From a virus, in the IMG/VR virus record IMGVR_UViG_3300009433_000003: a stretch of 43,540 nt of DNA, one strand, 5' to 3'. Made by a program: the position numbers and the translations under genes. Below the pieces are notes generated by a model. The model saw nothing but the letters and a program-made list of their open reading frames with translations, did not search any database and was not told the DNA's origin. Of this stretch, positions 12,514 to 34,652 are shown one piece after another (position 1 is the first letter of the stretch; the number at the start of each line of letters is the position of its first letter).

Positions 12514-12961
12514 TGTAAGGCCTGCGACACTCGAAGACGTTGACGTCCTGTTCGATAATATCCGAGCAGGAGACCTCAACGAAATGGAGTACGCCAGCCG
12601 ACAGACCCCTTACAATTACCTCCTTAAAACCTATGAAATGACGCGCAGCCCACTCGCCGGGGTCATTGATGGGAAACTGGTCGCGCTCATGGGTATTGTC
12701 CCGGTCGGGCTACTGACTGGTGAAGGCTGTCCATGGATGCTGGGCACCGAGGAGCTCAAGAAGCACGGGAAGATATTCGTCGCTTTCAGCAAACCCACCA
12801 TGATAAGTGCGGCCAAGCCTTACACGACTCTGCGAAACTATGTGGATGTTAGGAACAAACAATCGATTAGATGGCTGAAATGGCTGGGCTTTACGATTAA
12901 AAGCCCAGTTATCTACGGACCCTATAGTAAACCTTTTTACCCGTTTGAAATGAGGAAGTAA
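12494..12961 (+). CDS. Internal virion protein A-like (T7 gp13 / DUF2833-like)
   Basis: 155 aa, positioned after the nozzle gene. C-terminal N-x-x-SIRWLKWLGF pattern. Confidence 0.5.
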   Translation: MSKPEASVRPATLEDVDVLFDNIRAGDLNEMEYASRQTPYNYLLKTYEMTRSPLAGVIDGKLVALMGIVPVGLLTGEGCPWMLGTEELKKHGKIFVAFSKPTMISAAKPYTTLRNYVDVRNKQSIRWLKWLGFTIKSPVIYGPYSKPFYPFEMRK

Positions 12962-12964: not shown

Positions 12965-13492
12965 ATGTGCGGAATGGCAGAGGCAAGTCTTGCAATGATG
13001 GTTTTTGGAGGGATAAGCAGCTTCTCTCAGTCACGGCAGCAAGCAAAAGCTCAGAAACAGCAGGCAGCATTCGACTCCAGAGTCGCTGAGAACAACGCAA
13101 CCAACGCCGAAAACGAGGCGCTTCAGGTAGAACAGACGGCTCTAGCAGACGGCAAAATCAGAACGACGAAGGGCGAGCTCAGCAAGGGTCAGCTCCGGGC
13201 ACAGTTAGCAGCCAACGGCGTGGTCGTTGATGAAGATAACGCGCTCGGTTCATTGCTCGACGAGGAGGCCAGCACGGCGCTCGACGTCTTAACCATCAAG
13301 TACAACGCCGACAACCAAGCTGGAGGACTCCGGGCCGAGGCTAATAATTATCGCATAGGCGCGGCAAACACCCGGTCGAAAGGTGAGTTCGACGCAAGCC
13401 AAACCAAGTCCGCTGGCTGGGGCACTTTGCTCGGCAACGCTGGCAAAACCGCTGGACAATATGCCACCTTCAAGAAACTCGGAGCGATATAA
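12965..13492 (+). CDS. Internal virion protein B-like (T7 gp14-type)
   Basis: 175 aa. Starts MCGMAEASLAMMVFGGISSFSQSRQQAKAQ, similar to the T7 gp14 N-terminus MCWAAAIPIAISGAQAISGQNAQAK (from memory). Confidence 0.6.
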   Translation: MCGMAEASLAMMVFGGISSFSQSRQQAKAQKQQAAFDSRVAENNATNAENEALQVEQTALADGKIRTTKGELSKGQLRAQLAANGVVVDEDNALGSLLDEEASTALDVLTIKYNADNQAGGLRAEANNYRIGAANTRSKGEFDASQTKSAGWGTLLGNAGKTAGQYATFKKLGAI

Positions 13493-15397
13493 ATGGCGAA
13501 CCTCAGAGTCACTAGAGAACCAACTGTCGCAATCGATAGTCCCGTAAAGAATCGCTCATCACTAAGAGCGCCGACACTCCAGTTCAAGGACAGCGGCAGC
13601 CAGATATTCCAAGGCGGCCAACAGCTGGCAGCGCGTGCAGAGCAAATGCAGAAAGAGGAGAACGTCCTCACGGCCAAGGATATCGATAACCAGTACAGCG
13701 CTGAAATGCGCGAGATAATGGAAGCTGATGACGGCTACTATAACCAGAAGGGCAAGAGCGCTGTCGACCAGTTTGAGGCGGCACAAGAAAGACTGGACGC
13801 GCTTCAGGCAAAATATGCAGGGATGAGCGGGAATGACCACGTCTCATCATTGCTGGCCGGCACGTTGAACGCGAGAAAACAGAACGAGCTCAACAAGGTC
13901 TATACCCACAAAGCACAGCAACGCAATATCTGGGCTGACAACACTGATCAGTCCTCCATTGAGAACGCCACAAACGAAGCGGCCAACGCTTACAACGACC
14001 CTATCTATGTCGCCCAGAACGTCGCCAAGGGAATGGAGAGCGTGGACCGGGTCCTTAGTCGAGCAGGCATTCCACTTGTGGACGAGAACGGCAAAGAGAC
14101 CGAAGGGGCCAAGTCGGCGAGAACAAAATTTACCAGCGGATTGTATGAGCGCGTTATCGAACGAGAAGCCATCAACGACCCCATGGGCGCACAAAAGAAA
14201 TACGAAGCCATACTGAGCCAAGAGAAGGCAACGCCTGAAGGCCGCTTGCTGATAAGCCCAGACGCAAAGATGAGGATTGAGACATCCTTGAAGACGAAAG
14301 TCACCTCAGCCAAGGGCCGGGGCTTGCTGGTACAAATAAAGCAAGACAACCCGGGGCTCACTGATGAGCAGATGCTCCAGAAAATCTATGACCACGGTGA
14401 CACCACCGGCGATATCGATACCGCTGACGACGCGGCTCAACGCTTCCGTCAACGCATATCAGACAAGAAAGGCTTTAAGGCTGAGAACGAAAAGAGCGTC
14501 ATCAAGTCGGCGCATAAAAAGATTAACAGCACTGAATGGCAAGGGGCGGATCTGACCTTGAAAGACATATTATCTGAAGAGGAGTACAACCTACTTTCTC
14601 AGAGCCAGTACGGCATCGAGAACGCCGAGAAGCGTATCAAGCGAATGCGTGAAGGTATCAGCGTCGACACCACGCAAGGCAACATGTACAAGAAATGGGA
14701 TGGCGCCACTGCCGAGCAGCTCGTGGTCATGGTTGAGAAGGGCGAGCTCGACAACGACATCAATGGCGGGAGTATTTCAGACGGTGACGCACAGCGATAC
14801 TGGACCCTATACGGCAACGCAAAAGAACCGGGCAAGGTCACAGCCGAGAAGGCCGCTGCGAAACATATCTCGCCGAACGTGGGTGAGAAGCTAGCCGCTT
14901 ACCTGAAGAGAAATGAAATCAGCACCACCAAGAACCCAGATTCTGGGGAATTGACCAGCTACCTCGTCAAACACATACAAGACGTCAAGAACGCCTCGGG
15001 TGCTGCCGTGCTCGACGGCGCCACTGAGGACGAAATATTTGCGAAGGCAACCGCGCCCGTGAACATCCCGGGAGAATGGTTCGGCATAGATACTGTCCCG
15101 GCCTATAAGGCGTGGGCGAAAGAGGAAGCGAGCAAAGCTAAGGAACCGCATCAAGTCGACTTGGGCATCTATGAAGCGAGCGAGATTGCCATTGCAAAGG
15201 CAGCTTATGACAGTCAGCGCGAATCAATCACGGCCGACTTAAAGGCTGGCGGCAGACCATTCGAGAACGAAGACGAGGGCGGCTCATTTAATCTCAGCAC
15301 GAAGGGCGGCACAAAAACAAAAGAGCGCCACTACGACCGGGTGATACTAGATATGCTTATTCGGCAAATGAAACAACTAGACGAGGCTGAAAAATAA
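13493..15397 (+). CDS. Internal virion (core) protein C-like (gp15 position)
   Basis: 634 aa, helical and charged. Sits between the gp14-like and the giant gp16-position gene. Confidence 0.5.
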   Translation: MANLRVTREPTVAIDSPVKNRSSLRAPTLQFKDSGSQIFQGGQQLAARAEQMQKEENVLTAKDIDNQYSAEMREIMEADDGYYNQKGKSAVDQFEAAQERLDALQAKYAGMSGNDHVSSLLAGTLNARKQNELNKVYTHKAQQRNIWADNTDQSSIENATNEAANAYNDPIYVAQNVAKGMESVDRVLSRAGIPLVDENGKETEGAKSARTKFTSGLYERVIEREAINDPMGAQKKYEAILSQEKATPEGRLLISPDAKMRIETSLKTKVTSAKGRGLLVQIKQDNPGLTDEQMLQKIYDHGDTTGDIDTADDAAQRFRQRISDKKGFKAENEKSVIKSAHKKINSTEWQGADLTLKDILSEEEYNLLSQSQYGIENAEKRIKRMREGISVDTTQGNMYKKWDGATAEQLVVMVEKGELDNDINGGSISDGDAQRYWTLYGNAKEPGKVTAEKAAAKHISPNVGEKLAAYLKRNEISTTKNPDSGELTSYLVKHIQDVKNASGAAVLDGATEDEIFAKATAPVNIPGEWFGIDTVPAYKAWAKEEASKAKEPHQVDLGIYEASEIAIAKAAYDSQRESITADLKAGGRPFENEDEGGSFNLSTKGGTKTKERHYDRVILDMLIRQMKQLDEAEK

Positions 15398-15398: not shown

Positions 15399-18300
15399 AT
15401 GCTAAATTTTGACGAAGCATTCGAGGAAGAGTATCGCGCTTACACCCAAGGCCCTAGCAATACGCCAGAGCCTCAGCAAGACCTCAAGCCACTCAGAAAA
15501 GCAACGCAAGAAGACGCCAATAAAATCGCTGCCGACATGTTCGGTCAGAAAGGAAAGGACGACGCTGCCTTTAACCAGATGGCGGAGACCTCTCTCAGCA
15601 TGGACCCCGAGCAAGAGGCCAGCGCGTACAACATATCTAACGAGATAGGCGTGCCGGTAGAGACCGTTCGGGGAGACCTTGGTATCTACCAGCAGCTGGT
15701 CGCAAAACAAAAAGCGCTTACGGACTTCAGCGCCATAAAAGAAAACACCGGCCTGTCTAATTTGTACACCCAAGACGGGCAGCTCGCGGCCATGAGTGTT
15801 GATGACGCTTATGAACAAGATCAACTCTGGGGCTGGGTGACTAGCGTCACTGAGACAGTCTTCGACGCAACCGCTAACGAAATGCGACTCAAGAATGAAG
15901 TCGGTGACGTAATGGATGACACCGGCGGATTATTGCTTCGGAAATACATGTTCGACAACCTGAGTGAGGAAGACAACACAGAGCTCGCCACATTGCTCGA
16001 AGCCACGGACAGGGCAAACAAAATATTCGCAGACCGCTCAGACATCGATGAGTCAATCGCTCTCAATGGGGCCGAGATATGGGGGCAGTTTACGTCTTCG
16101 CTTCCTGTCATGCTGGGTGGCGCAGCGGTAGGCGCTGGCACAGGCTACGCCATGGGCGCGGCTTCAGGTCCCGGCGGCGCAATCACAGCCGGCACAGGCG
16201 CTTTGGTCGGCTCATCACTCGCGTCAGGCGCTCATGCAGCTGTCATGGAGGCTGGTCATGCCGTCCACGAGTTCGCTGGCATAAAGGACCTTGATGGCAA
16301 TTTCATGGACCAAGACGTCGCACTCGGCGCTGGCATGATGGTCGGGCTTATTAATGGCACGATTGAAGCGGCAGGCTTCGGCGTGCTGGCTAAGTTCTCC
16401 GGGGCCAAGAAGGTGCTCGGGTACTTCAGCAGGGGCGCTATAAGAAAAGAATTAATCCAGAACGCAACACTCCGCAAAGCACTGAAGAACGCCGGGAAGG
16501 CTTGGGCGTTAGGTATTGCCGAACAAACCGTCGAGGAAGTATTGCAAGAGAGCGTTAATATGCTGACGGGTGAAATGGCAAAAATGTACGCGAGCGGCGA
16601 CTTCAAGACCATGACTAAAGATGAAGCCTACGAACGACTTGGGGCCATCATGTACAAGACCGCTACCGGCTCAGTCATGCTGTCAGGCGGCACAGCGACG
16701 CCCCAGTTCTTGGTCGACGTGCACGCTGCCAATAAAGCAGAATCAACAAAGAGCTATTTCCAAGGGCTGGCCGAGAAGGTCACCACAACCAAACTACACG
16801 AACGAGCGCCGAAGAAACTGGAGACACTGGTCAACGCGGCAGCTGACAAAGGTCCCAAGGATACCGTCTATGTTGACGCCTTGAAATTGGTCGAGACACT
16901 GGCCAACAAGGACGAGAGTGGGCAGACGCTGAACCAAGACAAAGCCATTGCCGCCATTGAGGAAGAGTTCCCTAGCCTTAAAGGAAAGGTCGGGCCAGCG
17001 CTTGCCTCGAACACGCCGCTACGCATTCCAATGGGTGAGTACGCTGCCAACATTGCGCCAACCGAATTGCACAAAGCGCTGATCGACGACATCAAGTTCG
17101 ACGAGACCGGGATGACGTTCTCTGAAGCAACCGACTGGCGAGCGAATGGGGAAAAAGAATTTACGAAGGAAATGGAGAAGGCCAACAAGAAGGCAGTGGG
17201 CAAGCGAGAAAAGGCGGCCCCAGCCGAGAAAGTCTTCGACGAGGTTGTTGCTAAGTTAATTGATAGCGGCCAGACCAAGGAAGTCGCGGGAACAAATGCC
17301 GCCACTTGGAAAGCATTCTTCAACACGATGGCACACCTGACAGGCGGCGACGCTTATGAGTTATACAGTGCTTTCGATATCGATGTCGATAACGCGGCGG
17401 GGGGAGGTGATTTTCAGTCTTTGCTTTCTTCAGCGCTAGAACGACGGCCAGCAGATGAGACTATCGTGGAAGGGTCTGGGAACTCCAGCCCAACTGCCTC
17501 GAAGTCTGAAGGTTCAGCCCAAGACGCCTTGCCGGGCATGAAGTCCACAATACCAGCGCCGCCTTCAACCCATTCGCCGACAGATTCATCGAACGTCTCT
17601 ATCTTTTCGCCACCGTCTTCGGTTGCGACGAGTCTGCCGAGCACTCTTCCCTCTAGCAATGAAGGTGGTTCGGTCAGTTTAATCTCAGGGGAATTTTTCA
17701 TAAACCCGAGTATACAAAAAAGTAGCGAAAATAACAAGGCTGTATGGCAACTTACTGACGAACTTATCACGAACATGGGGTTAGCTGAGCAGGGCATGAA
17801 GGGCTTCGAGAATGACCTCAAGGCGTTCGCTTCTCTGATAGACGGCGTTGAGCTTTATGGTGTCCGGGTTAAGGACGAGGCGGGGCTCCTTACTAAGAAG
17901 CTATCGCGGGGCAGCACATGGGAAACCATTAACGATTATTTAGGCGGTCGCTTGGTCATATCAAACGAGGCCGCTATGGCGGAAGCCATGCGTCGCCTTG
18001 AAGAGTCGGGCGTCGAGATACTCGAGAAAGACAACTTCCTTCATAAAAGCAAAAAAGGATATCGAGCGGTCCATTACACAATCAGGTTGCCGAATGGCTT
18101 GGCGGCTGAGCTTCAGCTCGTCCCGACAGAGATATCCAATATTCAGGACGAAATGCACAAAATCCATGACAAATGGAAAGCGGTCAGCGAGACACTGTTG
18201 ACCGATGAACAAAAAGCAGACCGCGAAACCGACCGGGACTTCATGCAGGGTGAGTTCGACCGGGAATACCAGAACTATCAACAAAAGCAGGTCGTCCTTT

Positions 18301-21300
18301 CGCAGTCAAACAACAAGGCAATCTCGGACGCGGACCTTGCGACAGGGGAGGGCTTCTTTATCACAGAGGGCCTCGATGTCGTCAGCGTCGCAGTCAACAG
18401 CTTGCGAACCGTGAAGGACGCGCCTGAGCGAGTGGACCGTGCAGAGAAAGGAATGCTGGGCGCTCTTAATGGCGGTCAAGGCAGGAAACCGATATCAGTC
18501 ATGCAAGAAGACGACGGCACCTATACCGTGCTGTCAGGACGCTCGACGGCCTCGGCACTGAAGCGACTAGGCGTTAAGAACATCCCGGTCCGAATACAAA
18601 CTATGGAAGAGGTTGAGCTGGAAGAGGCCGCCGGCAAGATAGGCAAAATGCAAATGATAGAGGCTGGCATGTCAGGCGAAGCGTTCGACGCGAGCCACAT
18701 CGATGAGTATATCGTGGGCAAATGGGTGGCCACCGGGAAGGCGCACAAGAACCCAGATGGCTCATATATCTTGACAGAAACAGGCCTTAAAATGGTGGAA
18801 AAGGAGCTCAATGAGCCGACTATTTCCAGTATTGACAAACTAAAAGCTGGCGCCGAGCTGTTCGAGCCCGGGATTAATCTCGAGTTTGCGCCCGACCCAC
18901 GCAACGAAACACTGACGGCGAAGTTCAAAGCGCTGTCACCCGAGGAAAGACTCGAGGCCACGAAAGCCATAGCTGACGCGGTTATCCCTGAGATTATGAA
19001 AGAAATGGGGATTGATAATTACAACATTGAAACGACCGAGGGCGGCTTCGAGGACGACGTCAATCCTAGCCTGATACTTCGAGCTCCCGAGTTAGCGTTT
19101 GACGAATTGATAGAACTTGCTAATGTAGCGGGCTTCGTCGGGTCTCAACAAGCAACAATTGTTTATGATGAGTCTGACCATTCTGGAACACAGACCGGCT
19201 TTATTAAGATAAAACCACTGGTCGAAATGGATGAGAATGAACGTGCTGAATTGTACCAGCACCTCCATGAAGTTATTCCACAGGTCGAAGGCTACACCTA
19301 CCGAGACGGGGCCATTGTTATTGGCAACTTTTCCGGGTGGAGCGACAACCCGATTGACGACGACACGATGTACCTTGTCATTGCTGAGGCATTGGAAGCA
19401 TACGACACAGAACATCATTTTGACTTGCAAGAGCCGGTGACTTTCCGCTCTGAGTATTTAGAAACTAATCTTGAGGATACACGATATGGCTACGGTGAAC
19501 AGAGTGAAAGCGGACGGGAAACCAGTGTTCGGGGGCAAGGGCGTCGTAATGCTAAAGGGATTAAAGCCATCAAGCGAGAAGCCAGTCAACTCCTCGAAAG
19601 CAGGCTTAACGGTGGAAAAACCAACCAAGAAGTAAATAACGAGAAATGGCAGAAGGGTACCACTGCCCTTCTCAAGAGCAGAGACACCAAGCTACAAGTA
19701 ACAACAGCAGCGCCCGACGTCTTCAGCGTCATCGACAGCGGCGTCAAATCACTTGCCCTGACCAACGGGGTCCTGAAAGAAATACAACGAAAACACCCAG
19801 ACGTCCCGGCCGAGGTCATTGCTAACTTGCGCGAGCTTGTCACCGACCCTGAGTTCGTCTATCGCAGAACCATCCCGGGCAAAGAGGACGAGGTCAATAT
19901 CGTTATCAAGGGCCGCACAGCAAAAGGCGAGACCATTGTCGTCGGCGTGCATCCAGCGACAGGTATGATCAAAACAGTAACGCCACGCCATGACCAAAAA
20001 GGTCCGGGCTCTGGCCGCGCTCATCTAGCGAAGGAAATTGGCAATGCCCTGAAGGGCGAAAAGAAAATGTACATTGAAAATAAGGCGGCCTTGAGCGAAC
20101 TCGAGGCCGCCCAGTCTCGTCCAATCGCAAGTGTCGCGGGGGGACCAAAAAGACTGAGCGCTAAAGTAGTGACAAAATCAAAACTTGTCAATAACTTAGG
20201 CAGGGAGCTCGAGCAGTCTGGCTTCAATAATTGGTTCGGGGACTCAAAAATCGTTGATGATAACGGTGAGCCGCTGGTGGCTTATCATAGCACCAAGCGC
20301 GATATCACTGAGTTCAAGCCTGCTTATGATGACGGCATGATGTTCTTTACGACGAACGCCAAGTTCGCCGGGGACTGGATTAGGGGAAGCGGGGGGCTCA
20401 GAGATATGTCTGATGTCGGCAAGGCTGAAGCGCTGGCAATGCGGTCGCTCGAACAAGAGCTATACCCTGTCCACATGAAGGACGCTGAAGAGTACGACTG
20501 GAAGACCCCAGAAGGCGTGGCAGAGTTCGACAAGGACCGAGACAACTTCAAGAAAGCTGTCCGGGAAAAGACTGGTTTTGATAGCGCCTCAGAGTTTGAA
20601 GCTGTTGGCGAATCGCAAATCATGCCTGTCTACCTAAAGGTCGAGAAGCTGTTTGACCCAAGAAAAGACTTCAAGGTCGTCGAAGAGTTATTGCTTTCGT
20701 TCCCTGAAGAGAACGGCATGGGTAAGCTCGTCGAGCAGGGCGCTCACAAGCAAGGAAGCTGGATAATATACGAACGGCCAGAGGTTACGGAGCTACTCCA
20801 AGGCCTTGGGTATGACGGCATCCTTCTAGCAGAGAACATTGGAGGACCACACGAAACAATCGCGGTCTGGGATAATACGCTAATCAAGTCAGCCAGCGGC
20901 AACAACGGCAACTTTGACGGCAGCGGCAATATATTAAACCAGACGCTCAACGACGACATGGGCGGCGACACCCGGGGGAATATTACGCTCCCTGATGACA
21001 TCCGGGACGGCACCACAATTATCCGAATGTTTGAGGGACAAGACCTGTCCACCTTCCAGCACGAGTCGGCTCATTTCTTTTTAGAAGTTATGCGCTCACT
21101 GGCAATGGACCCGATGGCCACGCCTGAAATGATTAAGCAATGGACCGCTGTCAGCATGATGCTTGACATGGACCCCGAGGGCACGACCACGGTCGAACAG
21201 CATGAGACATTCGCCAGAACCTTCGAGGCTTATTTGTTCGAGGGCAAGGCGCCCAACATGGAGCTGAGGAAAGTATTCAACAGCTTTTTATTCTGGCTGA

Positions 21301-24300
21301 AACGTGTCTATGAGGACGTTAAGAATTTGAACGTCGTCATCAATGATGATGTCCGCGCAGTCATGGACCGGGTCCTTGCGACCGAGAAAGAGATTGAAGC
21401 GGCCAAGGACAATATGCACTATCGCGCATTGTTTGACGCGGCAGCGGCAGCCGGCATGGATGAGGACCAATATAACAGTTACACCGAGGCGCTCGAGGAA
21501 GCCAATGAGGGCGCAATCCGCCGTATGGAAATGGAAATTCTCCGGGATGTTTCACGGGAAACCAAGCTCTGGTGGCGAGAAGAAAAGAAGAAAGTCGCTG
21601 TCGAAGCTGAAGACGAAATCAATCAACAGAAAGTGCACCAAGTTATTCACTACCTTATGCACGCCAAGAACCTCGTCACAGGCGAGAAAGTCGGCAAAGT
21701 TAAGATGAGCCGCGAGCTTGCTGAGGAAGTGCTCGAGGGCACCGGCTACACCACCAAGGACCTACCGGGCGGCGGCGCGACTGCGCTAGTTCGTAAGGGT
21801 GAAGGCGTCAGGCCTGAGCTGGTGGCCGAGCTCTATGGCTACAGTTCAGCGCAAGAAATGTTGCTCGCTATTATCAAGGCACCGAAACGAAAGGAAGAGA
21901 TCAAAGCGAGAACAAAGCAAATGATGATTGAGCGCCATGGAGACCTATTGAACGACGGCTTCATTGAAGAGAAAGCCATGGAAATTATTCACAGTGATGG
22001 TCAGGCCAAGGTGCTCGAGCTCGAGCTGATGGCATTGTCACGCCGGTCGAAGACGAAGTTCACACCAGCGGCCATTGCTAAAAACATCGCCAGAGAGATT
22101 CTAAGCGGCATGACGGGCCGTGATATCAAGCCCAACACTTATGCCATTGCAGAGCGTAAAGCAGCAAGGGCGGCAGAAAAGGCCTTGATTAAGTCCAACT
22201 ATGACGAGGCAGCTAGACAGAAGCGAATACAGCTAATCAATCACGAGCTTTATCGTGCGGCACTGGAAGCAAAAGAGGACGTCGACAAGGCGCGGAAATA
22301 CTTCAAGAGCTTCGAGAAGGGCAGCAAACGCAAACGTCTGGACCGGGATTATTTGACGCAAATCGACAGGATGCTGGAACGGTTCGAGCTGGGCAAGATA
22401 TCAGGCAAACAAAAGAAACGACGCGAGTCACTGGCGGAATGGATTAAGAGCGAAGAGGAGAAAGGCAATATTGTCGACCTTGATGAGCGCCTGCTTGATG
22501 AGACCTATCGCAACAACATTGAAGACATGCAGCTCGGTGAGATTATGGCATTGAAGGACGCCGTCACTAACATCGAAAAACTCGCCGTGCTCAAGAACAA
22601 ATTGCAGTCACTGAACGACCAGCGTGAGCTCGACGAGATTGTTGAGGATGTCGCCGGGGAGCTGGAGGCAGGGGCTAAGGGCACCGTCAAAGACAACCCA
22701 GAAATGCGACTCCCTCAAGACGAAGCGGGTCGCGCAATTACAGGCTTTTTAATTGGTCACAGAAAACTGTCGAGCATTGTCTTGCAGATGGTCGGCGGCA
22801 AACGGAACTCGACACTCTGGAAGTTATTAGTCAAGACCGCGAACAAGCGGGAAGAGCACGAGAACAACCAGAAGGAAGCGGCAACCATCACTTTAACCAA
22901 GCTGTTCCAAGGCCTGAGCGTCAGTAAAAAGTTATACATGAAGATATGGCGCCCAGAGATTGGTGAGTCACTGACTAAACAAGGCTTGCTGATGATTGCG
23001 CTGAACCAAGGCAATCAAGGCAACAAGACGAAACTGGTAGAAGGGCAGACCGTGAAAGGCTGGTCTCAAGATAAAATCCAGAAGCTACTCGACAACCACA
23101 TGACCAAGGAAGACTGGGAAATGGTTCAAGGGACGCTCGACTTCATTAATAGCTACTGGGAAGAGTCAGCCGCGAAACAGTACCGCCTCACCGGGATACG
23201 CCCGGAGAAGGTTGAGGCCATGCCTATCGTAACGCCATACGGCACCTTTGCTGGCGGATACTTCCCGCTGAAGTATGAGGACCGGGTGAGCGAGAGGGCG
23301 CTGGTCCACACGCAACAAGACATCGCCAAGCAGATGACGCAAGGCATGGTCGGGAAAGCAACCACGAAGCGCGGCCACTTGAAGGGGCGAGTCGATAATG
23401 TCCAGATGCAAATGCGCCTAGACTTTGGCGTCATCTTCGAGCACGTCGGTGAGGTCATACACGATCAGACCTATCACGAATGGCTCGTCGATATTAATAA
23501 ATTAATCAGTCATTCTGGCTTCCGTACCGCTGTCGTCAAGAACCACGGCGTCCAAGCCTACGGCACTATCAAGAACACAATCTCTGATATTGCAGCCGGG
23601 GACGTGCCAGCAGCGAACCATTTTGAGCAAGGCCTTAACTGGATACGAGCAGGCACCTCAATCGGGTACATGGGCTGGAGCGTCTGGACCTCTATGTTGC
23701 AGCCTATGGGCTTGACTCAGTCCATTGTCAGGATTGGACCCAAGTGGGTGGCGAAGGGGATAAGTCGCTGGCTCACCGGCCATGAAGGCATGGAGAGCAC
23801 AACCGAATGGATATTCTCTCAGTCGGACTTTATGCGTCAACGTACCAAGACCATGAACCGGGAAATTAATGAGATTAGAAACAAGCTCCAGAAGAGCGGC
23901 GTAATGACGGACATTGAGGATAGTTATTTCTGGCTTATCGGGAAGACCCAGCTCATCGCTGACATCCCCACATGGCTCGGCGAATACGAGAAGCAAAAAG
24001 AATTACATAACATGTCGGACGAAGACGCGGCGGCTCTAGCAGATCAAGCCGTCATCGACTCGCAAGGGTCAGGCGGACTGAAGGACATGGCGCAACTCCA
24101 GAGGGGTGGACCGCTCCAGAAATTATGGACCGCGTTCTATAGTTATTTCAATGTAACGTATAACCTGACAGCAGAGTCCTACGCGAGAACAGACTTCAAG
24201 AGCGTGCCTTCAGTCGGGCGCCTTGCTGTCGACTTCATGCTGTTGCATACGCTGCCCTCAGCCATGGCCACCATCATGTATCAGATAGTAAAAGGCGACT

Positions 24301-24650
24301 GCGAAGACCCAGAATGTCTGGCCAAGCAACTCGTCGGCGACCATATCGGGTATACGCTGGGCATGGTCCTTGGTCTCCGGGAGCTGGGCGGTATTGCTTC
24401 GGGCTTCGGTTACACAGGCCCGTCGGGTATCAACCTGTTCGGGGAGGTGGCTAAGGCTGTCAAGCAGTGGAAACAAGGCGAGGTCGATGAGTCTTGGTTG
24501 AAGAGCACTAATAAGGTCGCTGGCATCTTATTGCATTACCCGGCTTCACAGATTGAGCGGACTATCAGAGGCATGTATCACATGGCTAATGGCAACACTA
24601 CCAACCCGATGGCACCACTTGTTGGACCTGCTTACAAAGACACTAGATAG
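15399..24650 (+). CDS. Giant internal virion / ejection protein (gp16 position), polyvalent multi-enzyme protein, 3083 aa
   Basis: Single uninterrupted ORF of 9252 nt. Contains Gly-rich hydrophobic segments, an RSH synthetase-like domain, a ParB-like domain, an ART-like domain, an HExxH domain, a long helical region and a hydrophobic C-terminal third. Confidence 0.85.
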   Translation: MLNFDEAFEEEYRAYTQGPSNTPEPQQDLKPLRKATQEDANKIAADMFGQKGKDDAAFNQMAETSLSMDPEQEASAYNISNEIGVPVETVRGDLGIYQQLVAKQKALTDFSAIKENTGLSNLYTQDGQLAAMSVDDAYEQDQLWGWVTSVTETVFDATANEMRLKNEVGDVMDDTGGLLLRKYMFDNLSEEDNTELATLLEATDRANKIFADRSDIDESIALNGAEIWGQFTSSLPVMLGGAAVGAGTGYAMGAASGPGGAITAGTGALVGSSLASGAHAAVMEAGHAVHEFAGIKDLDGNFMDQDVALGAGMMVGLINGTIEAAGFGVLAKFSGAKKVLGYFSRGAIRKELIQNATLRKALKNAGKAWALGIAEQTVEEVLQESVNMLTGEMAKMYASGDFKTMTKDEAYERLGAIMYKTATGSVMLSGGTATPQFLVDVHAANKAESTKSYFQGLAEKVTTTKLHERAPKKLETLVNAAADKGPKDTVYVDALKLVETLANKDESGQTLNQDKAIAAIEEEFPSLKGKVGPALASNTPLRIPMGEYAANIAPTELHKALIDDIKFDETGMTFSEATDWRANGEKEFTKEMEKANKKAVGKREKAAPAEKVFDEVVAKLIDSGQTKEVAGTNAATWKAFFNTMAHLTGGDAYELYSAFDIDVDNAAGGGDFQSLLSSALERRPADETIVEGSGNSSPTASKSEGSAQDALPGMKSTIPAPPSTHSPTDSSNVSIFSPPSSVATSLPSTLPSSNEGGSVSLISGEFFINPSIQKSSENNKAVWQLTDELITNMGLAEQGMKGFENDLKAFASLIDGVELYGVRVKDEAGLLTKKLSRGSTWETINDYLGGRLVISNEAAMAEAMRRLEESGVEILEKDNFLHKSKKGYRAVHYTIRLPNGLAAELQLVPTEISNIQDEMHKIHDKWKAVSETLLTDEQKADRETDRDFMQGEFDREYQNYQQKQVVLSQSNNKAISDADLATGEGFFITEGLDVVSVAVNSLRTVKDAPERVDRAEKGMLGALNGGQGRKPISVMQEDDGTYTVLSGRSTASALKRLGVKNIPVRIQTMEEVELEEAAGKIGKMQMIEAGMSGEAFDASHIDEYIVGKWVATGKAHKNPDGSYILTETGLKMVEKELNEPTISSIDKLKAGAELFEPGINLEFAPDPRNETLTAKFKALSPEERLEATKAIADAVIPEIMKEMGIDNYNIETTEGGFEDDVNPSLILRAPELAFDELIELANVAGFVGSQQATIVYDESDHSGTQTGFIKIKPLVEMDENERAELYQHLHEVIPQVEGYTYRDGAIVIGNFSGWSDNPIDDDTMYLVIAEALEAYDTEHHFDLQEPVTFRSEYLETNLEDTRYGYGEQSESGRETSVRGQGRRNAKGIKAIKREASQLLESRLNGGKTNQEVNNEKWQKGTTALLKSRDTKLQVTTAAPDVFSVIDSGVKSLALTNGVLKEIQRKHPDVPAEVIANLRELVTDPEFVYRRTIPGKEDEVNIVIKGRTAKGETIVVGVHPATGMIKTVTPRHDQKGPGSGRAHLAKEIGNALKGEKKMYIENKAALSELEAAQSRPIASVAGGPKRLSAKVVTKSKLVNNLGRELEQSGFNNWFGDSKIVDDNGEPLVAYHSTKRDITEFKPAYDDGMMFFTTNAKFAGDWIRGSGGLRDMSDVGKAEALAMRSLEQELYPVHMKDAEEYDWKTPEGVAEFDKDRDNFKKAVREKTGFDSASEFEAVGESQIMPVYLKVEKLFDPRKDFKVVEELLLSFPEENGMGKLVEQGAHKQGSWIIYERPEVTELLQGLGYDGILLAENIGGPHETIAVWDNTLIKSASGNNGNFDGSGNILNQTLNDDMGGDTRGNITLPDDIRDGTTIIRMFEGQDLSTFQHESAHFFLEVMRSLAMDPMATPEMIKQWTAVSMMLDMDPEGTTTVEQHETFARTFEAYLFEGKAPNMELRKVFNSFLFWLKRVYEDVKNLNVVINDDVRAVMDRVLATEKEIEAAKDNMHYRALFDAAAAAGMDEDQYNSYTEALEEANEGAIRRMEMEILRDVSRETKLWWREEKKKVAVEAEDEINQQKVHQVIHYLMHAKNLVTGEKVGKVKMSRELAEEVLEGTGYTTKDLPGGGATALVRKGEGVRPELVAELYGYSSAQEMLLAIIKAPKRKEEIKARTKQMMIERHGDLLNDGFIEEKAMEIIHSDGQAKVLELELMALSRRSKTKFTPAAIAKNIAREILSGMTGRDIKPNTYAIAERKAARAAEKALIKSNYDEAARQKRIQLINHELYRAALEAKEDVDKARKYFKSFEKGSKRKRLDRDYLTQIDRMLERFELGKISGKQKKRRESLAEWIKSEEEKGNIVDLDERLLDETYRNNIEDMQLGEIMALKDAVTNIEKLAVLKNKLQSLNDQRELDEIVEDVAGELEAGAKGTVKDNPEMRLPQDEAGRAITGFLIGHRKLSSIVLQMVGGKRNSTLWKLLVKTANKREEHENNQKEAATITLTKLFQGLSVSKKLYMKIWRPEIGESLTKQGLLMIALNQGNQGNKTKLVEGQTVKGWSQDKIQKLLDNHMTKEDWEMVQGTLDFINSYWEESAAKQYRLTGIRPEKVEAMPIVTPYGTFAGGYFPLKYEDRVSERALVHTQQDIAKQMTQGMVGKATTKRGHLKGRVDNVQMQMRLDFGVIFEHVGEVIHDQTYHEWLVDINKLISHSGFRTAVVKNHGVQAYGTIKNTISDIAAGDVPAANHFEQGLNWIRAGTSIGYMGWSVWTSMLQPMGLTQSIVRIGPKWVAKGISRWLTGHEGMESTTEWIFSQSDFMRQRTKTMNREINEIRNKLQKSGVMTDIEDSYFWLIGKTQLIADIPTWLGEYEKQKELHNMSDEDAAALADQAVIDSQGSGGLKDMAQLQRGGPLQKLWTAFYSYFNVTYNLTAESYARTDFKSVPSVGRLAVDFMLLHTLPSAMATIMYQIVKGDCEDPECLAKQLVGDHIGYTLGMVLGLRELGGIASGFGYTGPSGINLFGEVAKAVKQWKQGEVDESWLKSTNKVAGILLHYPASQIERTIRGMYHMANGNTTNPMAPLVGPAYKDTR
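17832..18182 (+). other. Domain: RelA/SpoT-type nucleotide pyrophosphokinase (small alarmone synthetase / toxSAS-like), aa 812-928
   Basis: Aligned by eye to the B. subtilis RelQ motifs. VRVKDEAGLLTKKLSRG matches RVKSPESIIEKIKRKG. DYLGGRLVI matches DIAGVRVVC. KKGYRAVHYTI matches DSGYRSYHLIV. AELQLVPT...HKIHDKWK matches VEIQIRT...EHKLRYK. Confidence 0.8.
18411..18623 (+). other. Domain: ParB/Srx-like nuclease/NTPase fold, aa ~1005-1075
   Basis: RKPISVMQEDDGTYTVLSGRSTASALKRLGVKNIPV matches the ParB N-terminal pattern (PI.V....G.y.vl.G..R..A...lG...ipv). Confidence 0.6.
19752..19991 (+). other. Domain (tentative): PBECR-like (phage Barnase-EndoU-ColicinE5/D-RelE) nuclease, aa ~1452-1531
   Basis: LKEIQRKHPDVPAEVIANLRELVTDPEFVY...VNIVIKGRTAKGETIVVGVHPATGMIKTVTP resembles the K-H..d....i..l.e.i.dPd.v...vvv....i.T layout of these domains. 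Weak. Confidence 0.3.
20220..20894 (+). other. Domain: ADP-ribosyltransferase-like (ART-PolyVal type), aa ~1608-1832
   Basis: FNNWFGDSKIVDDNGEPLVAYHSTKRDITEF, then MMFFTTNAKFAGDW, then PVYLKVEKLFDP, then GYDGILLAENIGGPHETIAVWDNTLIKSA. This is the typical H / S-T / E layout of the phage polyvalent-protein ART family. Confidence 0.6.
21006..21278 (+). other. Domain: zincin-like metallopeptidase (HExxH), aa ~1870-1960
   Basis: FQHESAHFFLEV (HESAH at nt 21060-21074) followed by EQHETFARTFEAYLFEG as a possible third ligand region. Confidence 0.55.
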
Positions 24651-26775: not shown

Positions 26776-27161
26776 TGGACCTATATATTCAATTCAGGCA
26801 CACAAGACCTGAGAACAGTACAGCGGATATAGGGGAGGTTACTCTTGTATACGAGACTTCTGAAATCGTAGAGCCACCTTCACCTACTAGTCACTTAGCT
26901 TTGGTAAAAATCACTGGGCTTCCTGCTTCGCAAAGTAAAGCAAAGTTGTACGAGCTGTTAGCCTCAGAGATTCAAGGTGAAGAAGATGTAGATGGGTATG
27001 ATGCCAGACGATGTGCTGTCTTTGATTTTGCATCATTACCTTCCCCATTTTTAAATGACTTCAATGTAAATAAAGAAGTGGATATTCCGTTTGGCATTGC
27101 TGTGTCATTACTACACAACAGAAAACTAAACCGTGGCATAACTCAGGGGGACTTTGACTAA
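26775..27161 (+). CDS. Hypothetical protein (tail-associated by position)
   Basis: 128-aa ORF. ATAATG overlap with the fibre stop. Visibly AT-richer than the upstream genes. Confidence 0.5.
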   Translation: MDLYIQFRHTRPENSTADIGEVTLVYETSEIVEPPSPTSHLALVKITGLPASQSKAKLYELLASEIQGEEDVDGYDARRCAVFDFASLPSPFLNDFNVNKEVDIPFGIAVSLLHNRKLNRGITQGDFD

Positions 27162-28174
27162 TGGCTGAAGTAGTACGCTACGTTAATACAGCATCCACTG
27201 CTGGAGGTGATGGGACTACTAATAACACTACTGGTGCTACAAGGGCATACGCCTCTAGTGCTGAGTGGAATACTGCGGAAATAACTAACCTAGTTTTAGA
27301 TACAGATAACCATGTCCTTAAGTGCTGTGGCACAGCTGCGGATACTGCTCAGCTTAATATGTCAGGATGGACTATGAGTGCTGTTTATAATTTCTTAATG
27401 GAAGGCAATCCTGATGAAGCTGATGGATGGAATAAAACCGGACTCTACAGTACAAGCCATTATCGAATAGAGACAGTTGATGCCTCTAACATTAAAGCTG
27501 CCAAAGACTCCTTTTCGACATTTAGAAACTTACAGGGGGCAACCTCAGGGACAGGGAATAATAATCCGAACGTATATCTTAAAAATACAGTGGATGTTCT
27601 CGAAGGATGTATCTTGCGTCAAGGGTGTACAGGCACTAAAGGAAAGGGAGTTATCGGTGATTATGCGCCTTTTGCAGGAAGTATAAGTAATAATATTATA
27701 TACTCTACCGACCCTTTACCTGAGCTTGATTCTTATGGGATATCTTTCAAAGGTGAGGTTAGTAGCACAGGCAGGATTTATAACAATACTGTATACGGAT
27801 TCCGCGAGGGAATTTACGCTCCTCTAGCTACTCAGGTAGGTAAGTGTAACAACAACACAGTCTTTGGCTGCACGGATGACTTTGATATGCATGCCAATTG
27901 GACGCTTGATTATAATGCTTCTGATGATGGTGATGGAACTAATGCACAAACATTATCGGGAACAAGGGCAGATGATTTTGTTGACGTAACAACTTATGAC
28001 TTTCACCCAGTAGAATCTGGTGTGTTACCTAGCAACGGCTTGGGCAGTGCCACCGATTCTAATGTACCTCTAGCAGATATTAAAGACGTTACACGTAGTA
28101 CGTCTGCACCATCAATAGGCGCTATTGAATATGGGGCAGTATCTTCATTCGTTCCAAAGATGGGAATTTATTAA
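27161..28174 (+). CDS. Putative second receptor-binding protein / tailspike with right-handed beta-helix-like repeats
   Basis: 337 aa. The N-terminus VRYVNTASTAGGDGTTNNTTGATRAYAS is typical of parallel beta-helix (pectate-lyase-fold) proteins. Contains N/G/T-rich repeats. Confidence 0.5.
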   Translation: MAEVVRYVNTASTAGGDGTTNNTTGATRAYASSAEWNTAEITNLVLDTDNHVLKCCGTAADTAQLNMSGWTMSAVYNFLMEGNPDEADGWNKTGLYSTSHYRIETVDASNIKAAKDSFSTFRNLQGATSGTGNNNPNVYLKNTVDVLEGCILRQGCTGTKGKGVIGDYAPFAGSISNNIIYSTDPLPELDSYGISFKGEVSSTGRIYNNTVYGFREGIYAPLATQVGKCNNNTVFGCTDDFDMHANWTLDYNASDDGDGTNAQTLSGTRADDFVDVTTYDFHPVESGVLPSNGLGSATDSNVPLADIKDVTRSTSAPSIGAIEYGAVSSFVPKMGIY

Positions 28175-30382: not shown

Positions 30383-30405
30383 ATTATATTCTCCTTTTTG
30401 ATGCT

Positions 30406-30687: not shown

Positions 30688-30890
30688 TTCAACAGCTTCC
30701 AAGTGATGTCGACCACTTTCAGGATGGGCATGGCGATGAACTTTTCTTGATTGGCTGCACTGAGCTTGTCATAGACTCCGACGACCGCGCTGGCCGTGAA
30801 GCTGTCGACAGTGTGGCCATCGATTTTCTTGTACCCGTTCTCGAGCACGTCTCTGAAGTTCTCTATGCCTTTTATTCCTAGTGCTTTCAT
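30684..30890 (-). CDS. Hypothetical protein
   Basis: 68-aa ORF. Tightly coupled to the HD-hydrolase gene: its start codon shares 1 nt (30890) with the HD-hydrolase stop. Confidence 0.5.
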   Translation of the reverse strand: MKALGIKGIENFRDVLENGYKKIDGHTVDSFTASAVVGVYDKLSAANQEKFIAMPILKVVDITWKLLK

Positions 30891-31360
30891 TACGCGTCTC
30901 CTTTCTTGATTAGGGCCACGACTGCGACGTTCAACTGTATCAGCGCGTCTGCATACTTCTTGACCTTCTTGGTGGGTATCTCGTTGCCATTGTTTAAGTG
31001 GTCATACAAGTCGCCCAGCTTGACGGTCATGGCCAGCTTGTTATTGCCGGCAATCAGTCTCGCCATATAGGCTGTGTAATTGTCGCCATCATGCTTGGTC
31101 AGGAACTTAACCGCTTCGATGACAGGCTCAGGAACACCGGCAGCCTTGAGGCTTGTGGCGTCGTGCTCGGTGTCCTCGATAATATCGTGGAGGAAGCCGG
31201 TGAGGTAGACATCCTCGTTATCAAGGTCGAATGGGTTGACGTATGCAGCAAGCAGGGCCACTGCCTTCAGATGTCTTTCATACGGGTCACCGGCCTTGTC
31301 GACCTGACCTTTGTGAGCTTCAAGTGCAAGGTTCCTGATGATTTTATAGGTAGTGGTCAT
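30890..31360 (-). CDS. SpoT/RelA-type HD-domain pyrophosphohydrolase (small alarmone hydrolase, SAH)
   Basis: 156 aa from ATG 31360 (SD AAGGAGG). EAHKGQVDKAGDPYERHLKAV, then FLHDIIEDT, then VKLGDLYDHLN match the (p)ppGpp 3-prime-pyrophosphohydrolase HD domain motifs. Confidence 0.8.
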   Translation of the reverse strand: MTTTYKIIRNLALEAHKGQVDKAGDPYERHLKAVALLAAYVNPFDLDNEDVYLTGFLHDIIEDTEHDATSLKAAGVPEPVIEAVKFLTKHDGDNYTAYMARLIAGNNKLAMTVKLGDLYDHLNNGNEIPTKKVKKYADALIQLNVAVVALIKKGDA

Positions 31361-31385
31361 ATTTGACCTCCTTTGTGAATTGAGT

Positions 31386-31416
31386 GGGAAATATAGCACG
31401 GCTCGTTGAGCCGTGC
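31386..31416 (-). promoter_or_regulatory. Palindrome + TATA-like box element, copy A (upstream of the SAH gene)
   Basis: On the minus strand it reads GCACGGCTCAACGAGCCGTGC-TATATT-TCCCACT. It lies 26 nt upstream of ATG 31360. Confidence 0.5.
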
Positions 31417-33602: not shown

Positions 33603-34652
33603 TCAGTCGGGTTGCTCTATTTTGGAGCGAGAGAACGGGGTCACGACCTTGCCTTTGCGACGGTAATGAGCCCGGGTGACGGCCGGTGTTGAGTGGTCAA
33701 GTTTATCGGTGGCCTCGGCCTCGGTCGCGTCGCTTGCTGCCTTGGCTCTGATGTCTGACTCAGTGAAGCGCTCGACGAGCTCGGTGTCCTCGAGTGCCTT
33801 GTCCATGCTCCGACGCCACACAGAATCAAAGCCACTGGCCTTCCGTTTTTCATCGAGGTAACACTTGCCGGCCCGGGTTGCGAACAGATACATCGACCCG
33901 ACTTTTCTCTTGATGGCGCGGACGTCGGCCACGGCTTCCCGGAGTTCGTCGTCCCATGTGAACATGATTTTCTTGCCGGTTTTATTCTGGACCACGAGGA
34001 GGCCCTCAGCTTTGATATCAGACAACTGGATGGTGAGCATGTCGCCCTTCCTAATGCCGAGCTTGAGCTTGAGCGTGACGTAGGTTTTTATCATCGGGTT
34101 AGCGACCTCAAGGAACTCAGCAAGCTCCCAGTCCTCAACGTATCGCGTGCGTGCCTTAGCGCCGAATTTCAGGACCTTGCCCTTGATTGGATGAAAGTCT
34201 ATGTATCCCCACTCAATCGCCTTGGTATACGCATGAGATAGGACGACGACGTGCTGATTGGCTAGGCTCTCGCTGCGACGGCCGACCTTGTCGCGCATCT
34301 TGTAGACATCCATGGGGCGAAGCGCACTGATATCCATTTCACCGAAGCCCTTGCGAAGCGCTGCGATAATTTTGATCTCAGTGTCGAAGGTGTTCGGGGA
34401 CTTTGTTGGGGAGACTTCTTTGATGTAACGGTCGAGCAGCTCGGCGATTGTCTTGGCGTCTTCATAGATATCTGCACGCTCGGCCCATGTCTTATATGCC
34501 TCGGGTAAGGTGCGGCCAAGGCGGAACTCTTTCTTGTTGTCCCAGTGCTGTCGAAGAGCCGGGGGAACTCGGTAAAAATATAGGCCACGACGGAAACGCC
34601 AGTTCGTTGGGAGGCCTTTGTTTTCAGGTGTTCGCGGCTTTGGCGGCGTCAT
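33603..34652 (-). CDS. int: Tyrosine integrase
   Basis: 349 aa. Arm-binding-type N-terminus. Catalytic-region motifs GIRKGDML and LDHSTPAVTRAHY (H-x-x-R...Y). Adjacent to attP. Confidence 0.9.
   Translation of the reverse strand: MTPPKPRTPENKGLPTNWRFRRGLYFYRVPPALRQHWDNKKEFRLGRTLPEAYKTWAERADIYEDAKTIAELLDRYIKEVSPTKSPNTFDTEIKIIAALRKGFGEMDISALRPMDVYKMRDKVGRRSESLANQHVVVLSHAYTKAIEWGYIDFHPIKGKVLKFGAKARTRYVEDWELAEFLEVANPMIKTYVTLKLKLGIRKGDMLTIQLSDIKAEGLLVVQNKTGKKIMFTWDDELREAVADVRAIKRKVGSMYLFATRAGKCYLDEKRKASGFDSVWRRSMDKALEDTELVERFTESDIRAKAASDATEAEATDKLDHSTPAVTRAHYRRKGKVVTPFSRSKIEQPD

Follow-up and report, generated by a model that had tools for sequence, protein, structure and literature searches.

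The IMG/VR virus record IMGVR_UViG_3300009433_000003, a stretch of 43,540 nt which we refer to as the window, carries in front of its tail fibre gene a single giant open reading frame (ORF). An earlier note, made from the sequence alone, had described the product of this ORF as a polyvalent internal-virion protein, and we followed up that description by analyzing the ORF, its relatives and its genomic neighbours. Nucleotides 1-123 of the window recur unchanged at nt 43418-43540, and since both ends agree, the window represents a complete genome with 43,417 unique bp, which was either circularly assembled or is terminally repeated (direct terminal repeat or assembly overlap). The ORF of 9252 nt, accounting for 21% of this genome, starts with ATG and runs through 3083 codons to a single terminal stop, exactly as the earlier note had it. 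The features of the locus are collected in Table 1.

An ORF of this size might be suspected to be an assembly or frameshift artefact that fuses several genes. The unusual length is the sole support for such an explanation, which we regard as scarcely credible. The chance of 3083 stop-free codons, computed from the base composition of the ORF itself, is about 1e-63; relatives of 1860-3881 aa with matching N- and C-terminal modules come from isolated phages as well as from dozens of contigs that are independent of each other; and a public fragment of 142 aa is 93% identical to aa 1502-1573. This fragment (P0124), which comes from a public read assembly and is divergent after the matching part, suggests by its identity that a near-identical phage exists in public sequencing data. 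Such a phage was not recovered by exact-match look-ups or pattern scans. Similarly, megablast of the ORF against 50,697 phage records gave no match at the DNA level, and peptide-pattern scans of genome contigs and viral contigs with the whole protein returned nothing.

Family and gene order of the giant ORF

Database searches established that the giant ORF is a member of the family of Bbp10 of Bordetella phage BPP-1, represented by PHROG 9880, which matched aa 1842-3070 with 1104.8 bits. With the last 1242 aa as query, tblastn matched 49 phage records, with 28-38% identity across 92-99% of the query length, among them Bordetella phages BPP-1, BMP-1 and BIP-1, Xanthomonas phage CP2 and its relatives, Pseudomonas phage AF, Caulobacter phages SR18 and BL94, Cobetia phage Carin1 and Octadecabacter phage OANV1. 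The C-terminal ~1240 aa showed 33% identity over 99% to Bbp10 and 41% to the closest relative, the metagenomic protein P0001. From a large protein database we obtained 61 relatives, mostly on contigs of ~20-47 kb, the longest of which are close to whole-genome size. These 61 metagenomic proteins are 1860-3881 aa long, and in the named phages the lengths are 2052 aa (BPP-1 Bbp10), 2854 aa (Carin1 gp32) and 2986 aa (OANV1 gp16). Since the members of the family span 1860-3881 aa, a protein of 3083 aa is ordinary among them. The earlier note had judged the size exceptional because it is over twice that of T7 gp16 (~1300 aa), which was the wrong yardstick. It may be noted that members of PHROG 9880 are often annotated as 'crystallin beta/gamma motif-containing protein' or 'lysin'. 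On the contig of P0001 (L009), a peptide deformylase and an Acb2/Tad1-hairpin anti-defence protein are encoded downstream of the giant gene (features at 19593-20318 and 22748-23128), and no HD hydrolase was found on it.

The gene order around the ORF is also that of the Bbp10 family. The genes for the large terminase, portal, a protease/scaffold-like protein, a major capsid protein of the GP7/BPP-1 type (nearest to those of Vibrio phages and Carin1, 53.5% identity), tail-tube A and nozzle lie upstream, and annotation of the neighbouring genes with PHROG and Pfam confirmed that the ORF follows gp13/14/15-like genes in the gp16 position, as had been proposed. Like Bbp10, it stands after a gp14-like and a muralytic gene and before the tail fibre gene, and this order of four genes is shared by the window, BPP-1, Carin1 and two further loci (L010 and L011). 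The gene preceding the giant gene is the transglycosylase-containing bbp11 in BPP-1 and is annotated 'putative lysozyme' in Carin1. In the window, aa 32-272 of the gp15-position protein matched PHROG 'endolysin' families at 4e-10 and 2e-8; Pfam and PDB sequence searches of this protein gave no match, the muralytic call thus coming from PHROG alone. Pfam scans of the giant ORF, whole and in segments, found no soluble lytic transglycosylase (SLT) or lysozyme domain, in agreement with the earlier note, which had recognised in it no transglycosylase motif such as T7 gp16 has. The equivalents of the preceding gene in related phages (Bbp11 of BPP-1, L011 and gp34 of PhiXacm4-11) do carry SLT. Because of this, and of the endolysin-like region in the preceding gene, the gp15-position protein is probably the muralytic partner that the giant ORF lacks.

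Table 1. Coordinates of the giant ORF, its segments and selected genes of the window, with the basis of each assignment
Feature	Position (nt)	Strand	Basis
Internal virion protein, phrog_308	12494-12961		PHROG
T7 gp14-family internal virion protein	12965..13492	+	Pfam T7_gp14 34.3 bits; phrog_418
gp15-position protein, 634 aa, endolysin/transglycosylase-like N-terminus	13493..15397	+	PHROG 'endolysin' families
Whole giant ORF, predicted polyvalent ejection protein, IVP-D/gp16 position, counterpart of BPP-1 Bbp10	15399..24650	+	Intact; PHROG 9880; tblastn
LPD22 domain, aa 60-137	15576..15809	+	Pfam PF18834 28.7-32.1 bits, cut-off 28.6
Rest of N module, aa ~215-680, including Gly/Ala-rich aa 221-335	16041..17438	+	BLASTP/phmmer
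S/P/T-rich linker, aa ~690-770, start of variable cargo	17466..17708	+	Composition
RelA/SpoT-homologue, small alarmone synthetase-like pyrophosphokinase domain, aa ~785-975	17751..18323	+	Pfam, PDB matches
ParB/sulfiredoxin-fold domain, aa ~1017-1085	18447..18653	+	Three-sequence profile
Uncharacterised domain, aa ~1156-1400, tandem ferredoxin-like alpha/beta fold	18864..19598	+	Homologues; AlphaFold2
Possible PBECR/MuF-C-like RNase domain, aa ~1440-1535	19716..20003	+	Pfam MuF_C below cut-off
ART-PolyVal ADP-ribosyltransferase domain, aa ~1601-1856	20199..20966	+	Pfam PF18760 53-65 bits, cut-off 31.2
HExxH domain opening the C module, putative zincin-type metallopeptidase	20976..21428	+	H1888-E-S-A-H1892, E1936, E1943
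Charged helical region of C module, ~470 aa	21429..22838	+	Composition; conserved with relatives
C-terminal conserved region, aa 2481-3083	22839..24647	+	28-41% identity to relatives; invariant residues
Tail fibre	at 24709		Follows giant ORF
Aph1-like HD-domain alarmone 3'-pyrophosphohydrolase	30890..31399	-	PDB 7smg, Pfam HD, phrog_990
Tyrosine integrase	33603..34652	-	Pfam Phage_integrase 27.9 bits; Phage_int_SAM_3 24.1 bits

Some other features of the genome were noticed in passing. The nozzle or tail-tube B protein (9811-12513, plus strand) has an insert at aa 180-238 which matches Pfam E1_FCCH (69.6 bits), a domain of ubiquitin-activating enzymes; since the listed TTG start of this gene overlaps the tail-tube A gene by 200 nt, its true start probably lies further downstream. 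Just past the tail fibre, a low-GC ORF of 337 aa (27161-28174, plus strand) without Pfam or PHROG match may be a recently acquired host-recognition or accessory gene; the GC content of this stretch and of window positions 1-1000 is 0.41, versus ~0.52 genome-wide. A protein of 135 aa (28585-28992, plus strand) matched phage metallo-endopeptidase and endolysin families and is probably the lysis enzyme, distinct from the muralytic gp15-position protein. No tRNA genes were found in the window.

Conserved modules and a variable cargo

Mapping of the ORF by BLASTP against the 61 relatives and by phmmer of individual segments divided it into three parts, namely a conserved N module (aa ~1-680), a hypervariable cargo (aa ~680-1850) and a conserved C module (aa ~1850-3083), which up to aa ~3077 is common to nearly all relatives. 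The two conserved modules presumably do structural work. Within the middle section only the ADP-ribosyltransferase (ART) domain recurs in relatives, which carry instead PBECR1 (Bbp10), PBECR5 (Carin1), ART, LPD3, zeta toxin plus AAA_33, GNAT, Pol-beta NTase, SLT and other domains, in cargos of ~150 to >1500 aa as judged from BLASTP coordinates. The comparison of gp16-position proteins that the earlier note had called for, to see which domains are swapped, therefore gave a clear answer: it is the whole middle cassette.

The N module begins with an LPD22 domain, which is recognised far more strongly in Bbp10 (88.5 bits) and in Carin1 gp32 (55 bits) than here, and its remainder (aa ~215-680) matched 13 relatives, Carin1 and BPP-1 by BLASTP and phmmer. 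The glycine-rich hydrophobic segment which had been seen at aa ~221-335 is real, with 13-18% Gly, though its hydropathy is modest and only aa 307-331 reach ~1.4. In the C module, the run of some 500 aa of charged helices is equally evident, D/E/K/R making up 31-43% of aa 2001-2500. The hydrophobic C-terminal third, on the other hand, had been overstated, as aa 2481-3083 contain a few moderately hydrophobic segments (~2745-2790 and 2942-2964), of which only the last stands out in hydropathy.

The C module opens with the HExxH domain. H1888, E1889, H1892, E1936 and E1943 show no variation among family members, BPP-1 among them, whether 9 or 21 of these are compared. In an AlphaFold2 model of the region (pLDDT 78) the motif residues lie on consecutive helices after two short strands, and because of this arrangement the model fits the minimal zincin layout of Iyer et al. 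(PMC5512222). A Foldseek search of a viral library with the model returned only homologous uncharacterised giant proteins. The HExxH peptidase of the earlier note thus stands as far as the motif and its invariance across the family are concerned, while the zincin fold was unconfirmed by Foldseek. As the HExxH...E domain sits exactly at the junction of cargo and scaffold, we take it as the leading candidate for a metallopeptidase that would detach the cargo.

The resemblance to Bbp10 thus extends to the N-terminal LPD22, the conserved N module and the C module with its invariant HExxH...E residues. The difference lies in the cargo, as Bbp10 is only 2052 aa long and has PBECR1 as its only recognisable cargo, whereas the cassette described here comprises ~1170 aa and five domains: a RelA/SpoT-homologue (RSH) domain, a ParB/sulfiredoxin (Srx)-fold domain, an uncharacterised tandem ferredoxin-like domain, a possible PBECR RNase and an ART. 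It is preceded by the S/P/T-rich linker that had been noted earlier, S, T and P together making up 39% of aa 701-800; in the BLASTP map no homologue aligns across aa ~690-770.

The RSH domain, already recognised as synthetase-like, was supported by Pfam RelA_SpoT (PF04607), with 29.0 bits on the isolated segment against a cut-off of 27 and 24.9 bits in the whole-protein scan. Searched against PDB, the single domain matched RelP only (E=4.7e-5), and the profile of its sub-clade matched YwaC and YjbM at 6-9e-8. The synthetase motifs syn1 to syn5 (described in PMC12226406) read RVK...K, DYLGGR, GYRAVH, ELQ and HKIHDKW. In the sub-clade alignment (A6) no variation is seen at R822, K824, K833, D845, Y887, A889, H891, G899, E903, Q905 and H919, which lie in the motifs RVK...K, D(Y)LGG, GYRAVH, ELQ and H..Y/H. 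The syn4 motif reads ELQLVP, without the Arg of the canonical EIQIRT of (p)ppGpp synthetases. Other giant proteins, too, have related RSH domains (P0181, with 43% identity; P0144, P0206 and P0126). None of the 61 relatives has an RSH domain, and tblastn with the synthetase domain against the 50,697 phage genomes gave no match. A word-indexed protein search with aa 770-1150 returned nothing, and with the RSH alignment it returned three small proteins only.

We first adopted a Tas1-like (p)ppApp synthetase as the identity of this domain, Tas1 being the top PDB match of a profile built from a broader set of sequences (A1). This assignment was rejected, as the match depended on two outliers, P0192 and P0118, and the sub-clade profile without both gave no Tas1 at E<=0.01. 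The signatures, too, speak against the Apk/Tas1 type: Apk enzymes have R-Y/N-T at syn2, GxN at syn3 and YH/VN at syn4 (PMC12226406), where the present domain has GGR, AVH and LV. Other toxic RSH enzymes are reported to pyrophosphorylate the tRNA 3' end (PMC11782079; 10.1101/2021.04.30.441581). The candidate products of the present synthetase domain are (p)ppGpp, (p)ppApp and a tRNA pyrophosphorylated at its 3' end.

For the ParB/Srx-fold domain, a shallow profile of three sequences matched SbnI (3.8e-6), ParB (5.5e-4) and Noc (1e-3); Pfam ParB_N was reached only at E=0.07 and phrog_3951 at 8.6e-4. The domain holds VLSGRST, the conserved Gly-x-x-Arg region. Pfam ddrB-ParB (PF18763) did not match the ORF at E<=5, though other RSH-bearing polyvalent proteins have such a domain. 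The ParB-like call of the earlier note can therefore be retained at the level of the superfamily and not as any closer assignment. The unassigned domain of ~200 aa that had been placed at aa ~1140-1345 proved to be real and widespread, as 59 of the 211 proteins analysed carry the domain at aa ~1156-1400, with E down to 3e-54, though it has no Pfam family and no sequence match in PDB. Its AlphaFold2 model (pLDDT 84.5) consists of tandem beta-alpha-beta-beta units, and E-x-A-P-x-P, NPS, YDE, RDG..GNFS and LEGTRYG are its conserved motifs; Foldseek of the model against PDB gave no significant match. T3 SAM lyase was considered as an identity for it and set aside, as only one of 16 homologues hit Pfam S-AdoMet_lyase (3.7e-4) and the Foldseek matches to the lyase (probability 0.54-0.89, E >=0.07, target-normalised TM-score ~0.5) were likewise too weak.

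The possible PBECR nuclease remains a weak call. MuF_C scored 18.4 bits (E=0.0024), below its cut-off of 27.6, and in its favour there is one good homologue, P0159, at 1.7e-25; His1467 (in RKHPDV) stands at the position of the PBECR helix histidine given in the description of the family (PMC5512222), and TVTP is also present. The ART domain, in contrast to it, is a firm assignment (65 bits), as the earlier note had supposed. Of 27 columns that are at least 85% conserved in an alignment of 45 sequences it keeps all but one, the exception being S1631, where the consensus is G; His1630 is among the residues kept, and the domain is of the H-Y-[D/E] type.

One may argue from these results that the protein is essentially structural and that its enzyme-like domains are decayed relics or spacers, non-catalytic, which fill the core or lengthen the conduit. 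The weak PBECR and ParB calls, an LPD22 score at threshold and the syn4 motif without its canonical Arg would agree with this, and the very short cargo of BPP-1, P0007, P0012 and P0018 indicates that cargo is dispensable for the structural role. We nevertheless consider it improbable that nothing in the cassette is catalytic. The ART consensus residues and the RSH motifs are retained, and homologues of the cargo domains are found at 30-50% identity in other giant phage proteins (3624 matches), which argues for purifying selection on function.

An Aph1-like hydrolase in the same genome

Besides the synthetase domain, the genome encodes an HD-domain hydrolase (Table 1), which the earlier note had missed; its translation probably starts with the ATG at 31360, and the protein then has 156 aa. 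Its best PDB match was the (p)ppApp hydrolase Aph1 (7smg, E=4.6e-12), followed by a small alarmone hydrolase at 1e-6, and it matched Pfam HD (30.8 bits) and phrog_990 (2.8e-34). Aph1 came to light in temperate phages as an enzyme giving immunity to the MuF-fused (p)ppApp synthetase Apk2, and has the signature D24, R96, D116, R119, K133 and Y134 (PMC10083569). In the HMMER alignment D24-K25-A26 and R96 of Aph1 are identical in our protein and a probable K-Y pair follows, while the positions of D116 and R119 are each taken by Asn and adjoin a gap. By inference, this adenosine-type signature would favour (p)ppApp or the tRNA 3' end over (p)ppGpp as the product of the synthetase domain.

We observed a similar combination at two other loci. 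L005 encodes a polyvalent protein of 3933 aa with RSH, ddrB-ParB, ART and LPD38 domains, and 0.7 kb downstream of its gene, on the opposite strand, a 146-aa homologue of the HD hydrolase (L005:15565-16005, minus strand; 27% identity, E=8e-16). This contig belongs to a temperate phage with integrase and RecT. On L008 (positions 115-1507), genes for a stand-alone RSH homologue of 207 aa, a protein of 76 aa and an HD_4 hydrolase lie in a row, which resembles the apk-iapK-aph1 module; a protein of 1910 aa with an SNF2 helicase is encoded a few kb downstream. No HD gene was found at four other RSH-bearing loci, which are partial contigs, nor in five RSH-lacking relatives within the DNA examined. 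Thus an HD hydrolase is present at 3/7 RSH-bearing loci against a background of 407 of the 50,697 phage records (0.8%), and the probability of finding it at three or more of seven loci is 1.8e-5.

These observations raise the possibility that the synthetase domain and the Aph1-like hydrolase are a toxin/antidote pair split between virion and genome. Such an arrangement would have the ejection protein bring into the cell, along with the DNA, a toxic 3'-pyrophosphokinase of nucleotides or tRNA, so that host metabolism is arrested within seconds, and the hydrolase, whether expressed by the infecting genome or by a resident prophage, would then lift the arrest or immunise lysogens. We offer this proposal only tentatively. 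A marginally better chance, though still short of an even one, is given to the opposite view that the hydrolase is unrelated to the ORF, that it is a general counter-measure against host alarmones or defence-derived nucleotides and that the co-occurrence is coincidental. Homologues of the hydrolase are present in 407 phage records and the synthetase domain had no tblastn match in any phage record, most Aph homologues occur outside toxin contexts (Ahmad et al., PMC10083569), and the hydrolase gene is not adjacent to the ORF. Set against a coincidence are the 3/7 RSH-bearing loci which carry a hydrolase, well above the 0.8% background, and the established pattern in which hydrolases act as antidotes to toxic RSH enzymes (PMC10083569, PMC7229694).

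The proposed split pair may be compared with Apk2 and its immunity proteins IapK and Aph1, and with Apk1/Tas1 (PMC10083569, PMC12226406). Here, as there, a temperate phage has an RSH-type synthetase on a virion-associated carrier and an Aph1-like HD hydrolase in the same phage. The carrier of Apk2 is a MuF protein, whereas it is an ejection protein here; the present synthetase lacks the Apk signatures and matches small alarmone synthetases, not Tas1; and the hydrolase lies 6 kb away on the other strand with no IapK/Tis1-like gene recognised beside it. The 115-aa ORF upstream of the HD gene had no PDB match, though the Tas1 complex 6ox6 is in PDB.

The position of the hydrolase gene suggests yet another role for the cassette. 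Since an integrase is encoded in the window, the phage is probably temperate, as the earlier note had said, and an ORF-poor stretch of ~830 nt (32773-33603) adjoining the integrase gene is probably the attP region. If attP is located there, the block with the HD hydrolase (30086-32773, minus strand) would come to lie at one end of the prophage, a typical site for lysogen-expressed genes. The effector cassette could be a lysogen-benefit or interbacterial weapon, similar to polymorphic toxins, which harms competitors or superinfecting phages, the HD hydrolase being the immunity gene expressed from the prophage. The same reading has been discussed for temperate phages in which MuF-fused (p)ppApp synthetases are accompanied by the immunity genes of IapK and Aph1 (PMC10083569, PMC12226406). 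The present phage has an integrase, and the HD gene stands in an opposite-strand block between the lysis and tail genes and the integrase, near the probable attP. However, the toxin domains are part of an essential-looking structural gene of the late operon and not of a separate toxin-immunity cassette, no small immunity-like gene adjoins the ORF, and the 115-aa ORF, as mentioned, had no match to the Tas1 complex. We consider a weapon of this kind rather unlikely, though it is not mutually exclusive with a function of the cargo in aiding infection.

A probable polyvalent ejection protein of a BPP-1-type phage

Combined together, the results make it fairly likely that the ORF encodes the large internal-virion (ejection) protein of a temperate podophage of the epsilon15/BPP-1 type, standing in the place of gp16 (IVP-D, for internal virion protein D) and built as a polyvalent protein, with the mechanism outlined below and the hydrolase as candidate antidote. 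Membership in the Bbp10 family, the three-part architecture, the retention of catalytic motifs and the presence of the hydrolase are direct results of the analysis, and the polyvalent internal-virion protein of the earlier note is upheld by the LPD22 and ART-PolyVal markers, by the position between the gp14/gp15 genes and the tail fibre and by the homology to Bbp10. Polyvalent proteins were defined by Iyer et al. in 2017, who described the metallopeptidase as a hub domain, proposed autoprocessing, and listed RelA/SpoT, DdrB-ParB, PBECR/MuF-C, ART and LPD domains among the phage-type components; certain Helicobacter prophage proteins combine PBECR, DdrB-ParB and RelA-SpoT (PMC5512222). Our ORF lies among virion and late genes and has at least two unrelated effector domains, ART-PolyVal (65 bits), LPD22 (32.1 bits) and RelA_SpoT (29.0 bits) each exceeding the curated cut-off when searched as a segment. 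It therefore resembles the proteins of Iyer et al. in bringing together many unrelated enzymatic domains in one late-gene product, including the hallmark ART-PolyVal, LPD22, RelA/SpoT, ParB, PBECR/MuF-C and the HExxH hub. It differs from them in that RelA/SpoT was found there in spirochaete and epsilonproteobacterial phages and prophages and in MuF fusions, and here in a BPP-1-like ejection protein of marine gammaproteobacterial type; in that the ParB domain has no Pfam ddrB-ParB match and one cargo domain is not in Pfam; and in the linked hydrolase, which was not described there.

The relation to T7 gp16 comes from the work of Hardies et al. (2016), who listed Bbp10 as a homologue of IVP-D in the epsilon15 subgroup by HMM-HMM comparison and stated that domains meant to reach the cytoplasm are housed in internal virion proteins (PMC4819975). 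Besides the syntenic position, the gp16-like trait here is a large helical character, the AlphaFold2 model of aa 1841-2060 being mostly helical. The likeness to T7 gp16 and to IVP-D fusions such as the virion RNA polymerase gp50 of phage N4 and the methylase gp60 of Pseudomonas phage H66 consists in an internal virion protein of large size and helical character, with its gene between those for nozzle and fibre, whose scaffold bears domains that must act in the cytoplasm. Unlike T7 gp16, our protein has its transglycosylase-like partner in the neighbouring gene and showed no detectable sequence similarity to gp16, and where fusions of the N4 gp50 type bear a polymerase it bears a set of conflict effectors. 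A homologue of the giant ORF product, gp35 of PhiXacm4-11 (a Xanthomonas phage related to CP2), is treated in a 2026 preprint, which proposes on gene order that gp33, gp34 and gp35 (2300 aa) may be core proteins, reports a transglycosylase fold in gp34 and no PDB similarity for gp35, and describes a density above the portal that was taken as core proteins; purified virions gave peptides from 15 of the 18 genes of this block.

We propose that a few copies of the protein would be packed in the capsid core and, at infection, be ejected unfolded through the tail, ahead of or along with the DNA. The conserved modules would help to form a trans-envelope conduit, and the cargo, released from the scaffold by the HExxH domain, would refold in the cytoplasm and act at once on host nucleotide pools or tRNA, DNA, RNA and proteins, thereby stalling the host and blunting its defences. 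The HD hydrolase would most likely degrade the product of the synthetase domain, and so either shield producing or lysogenic cells or bring the arrest to a close when expression of phage genes has begun.

Several observations weigh against this picture of an ejected, self-cleaving protein with an antidote. The presence of the giant protein in the virion, its ejection and its cleavage are all deduced. A C-module profile of nine sequences reached no T7 gp16 chain in PDB at E<=10, so the homology to gp16 stands on gene order and on the published HMM-HMM evidence for Bbp10. Foldseek of the HExxH model against PDB retrieved no solved zincin or protease (best E 0.11), and Pfam has no family for this region. 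The PBECR and ParB assignments score below the threshold or close to it, and the top match of the synthetase to Tas1 vanished once P0192 and P0118 were left out. As for the antidote, its link with the RSH domain comes from three loci; 3/7 RSH-bearing against 0/5 RSH-lacking loci is not a significant difference (Fisher p=0.20); HD hydrolases are encoded by hundreds of phage genomes that have no tblastn match to the synthetase domain; and 6.2 kb separate the ORF from the hydrolase gene, which is on the other strand.

With respect to what was known before, the polyvalent concept (PMC5512222), the fusion of cytoplasmic enzymes to an ejection scaffold (PMC4819975) and most of the domain combination are already published. 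The claim of the earlier note that this combination on an ejectosome scaffold is unusual accordingly needs to be narrowed to the RSH domain, which is new to the Bbp10-type family (0/61 relatives and no tblastn match among the phage genomes). The candidate pairing of RSH and an Aph1-like hydrolase is likewise new.

The gp16-position ejection protein of BPP-1/epsilon15-type phages thus appears as a modular delivery vehicle with fixed ends and a swappable cassette that is bounded by the HExxH domain, and this layout offers a practical system for studying the packing of folded enzymes, their ejection by way of a short tail, and their release and timing. A family definition is warranted for the uncharacterised domain at aa 1156-1400, which Pfam lacks although giant phage proteins commonly carry it. 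Ahmad et al. (2023) left it as an open question whether phage-borne toxins of the Apk2 kind are injected (PMC10083569), and the presence of an RSH domain and an Aph1-like hydrolase in one small genome allows a concrete test of the injection of alarmone-synthetase toxins and of the purpose of their immunity genes. If the split pair is true, it would be direct evidence that such toxins are injected, and the ejection protein would be a third type of carrier for them, after PAAR (Apk1) and MuF (Apk2).

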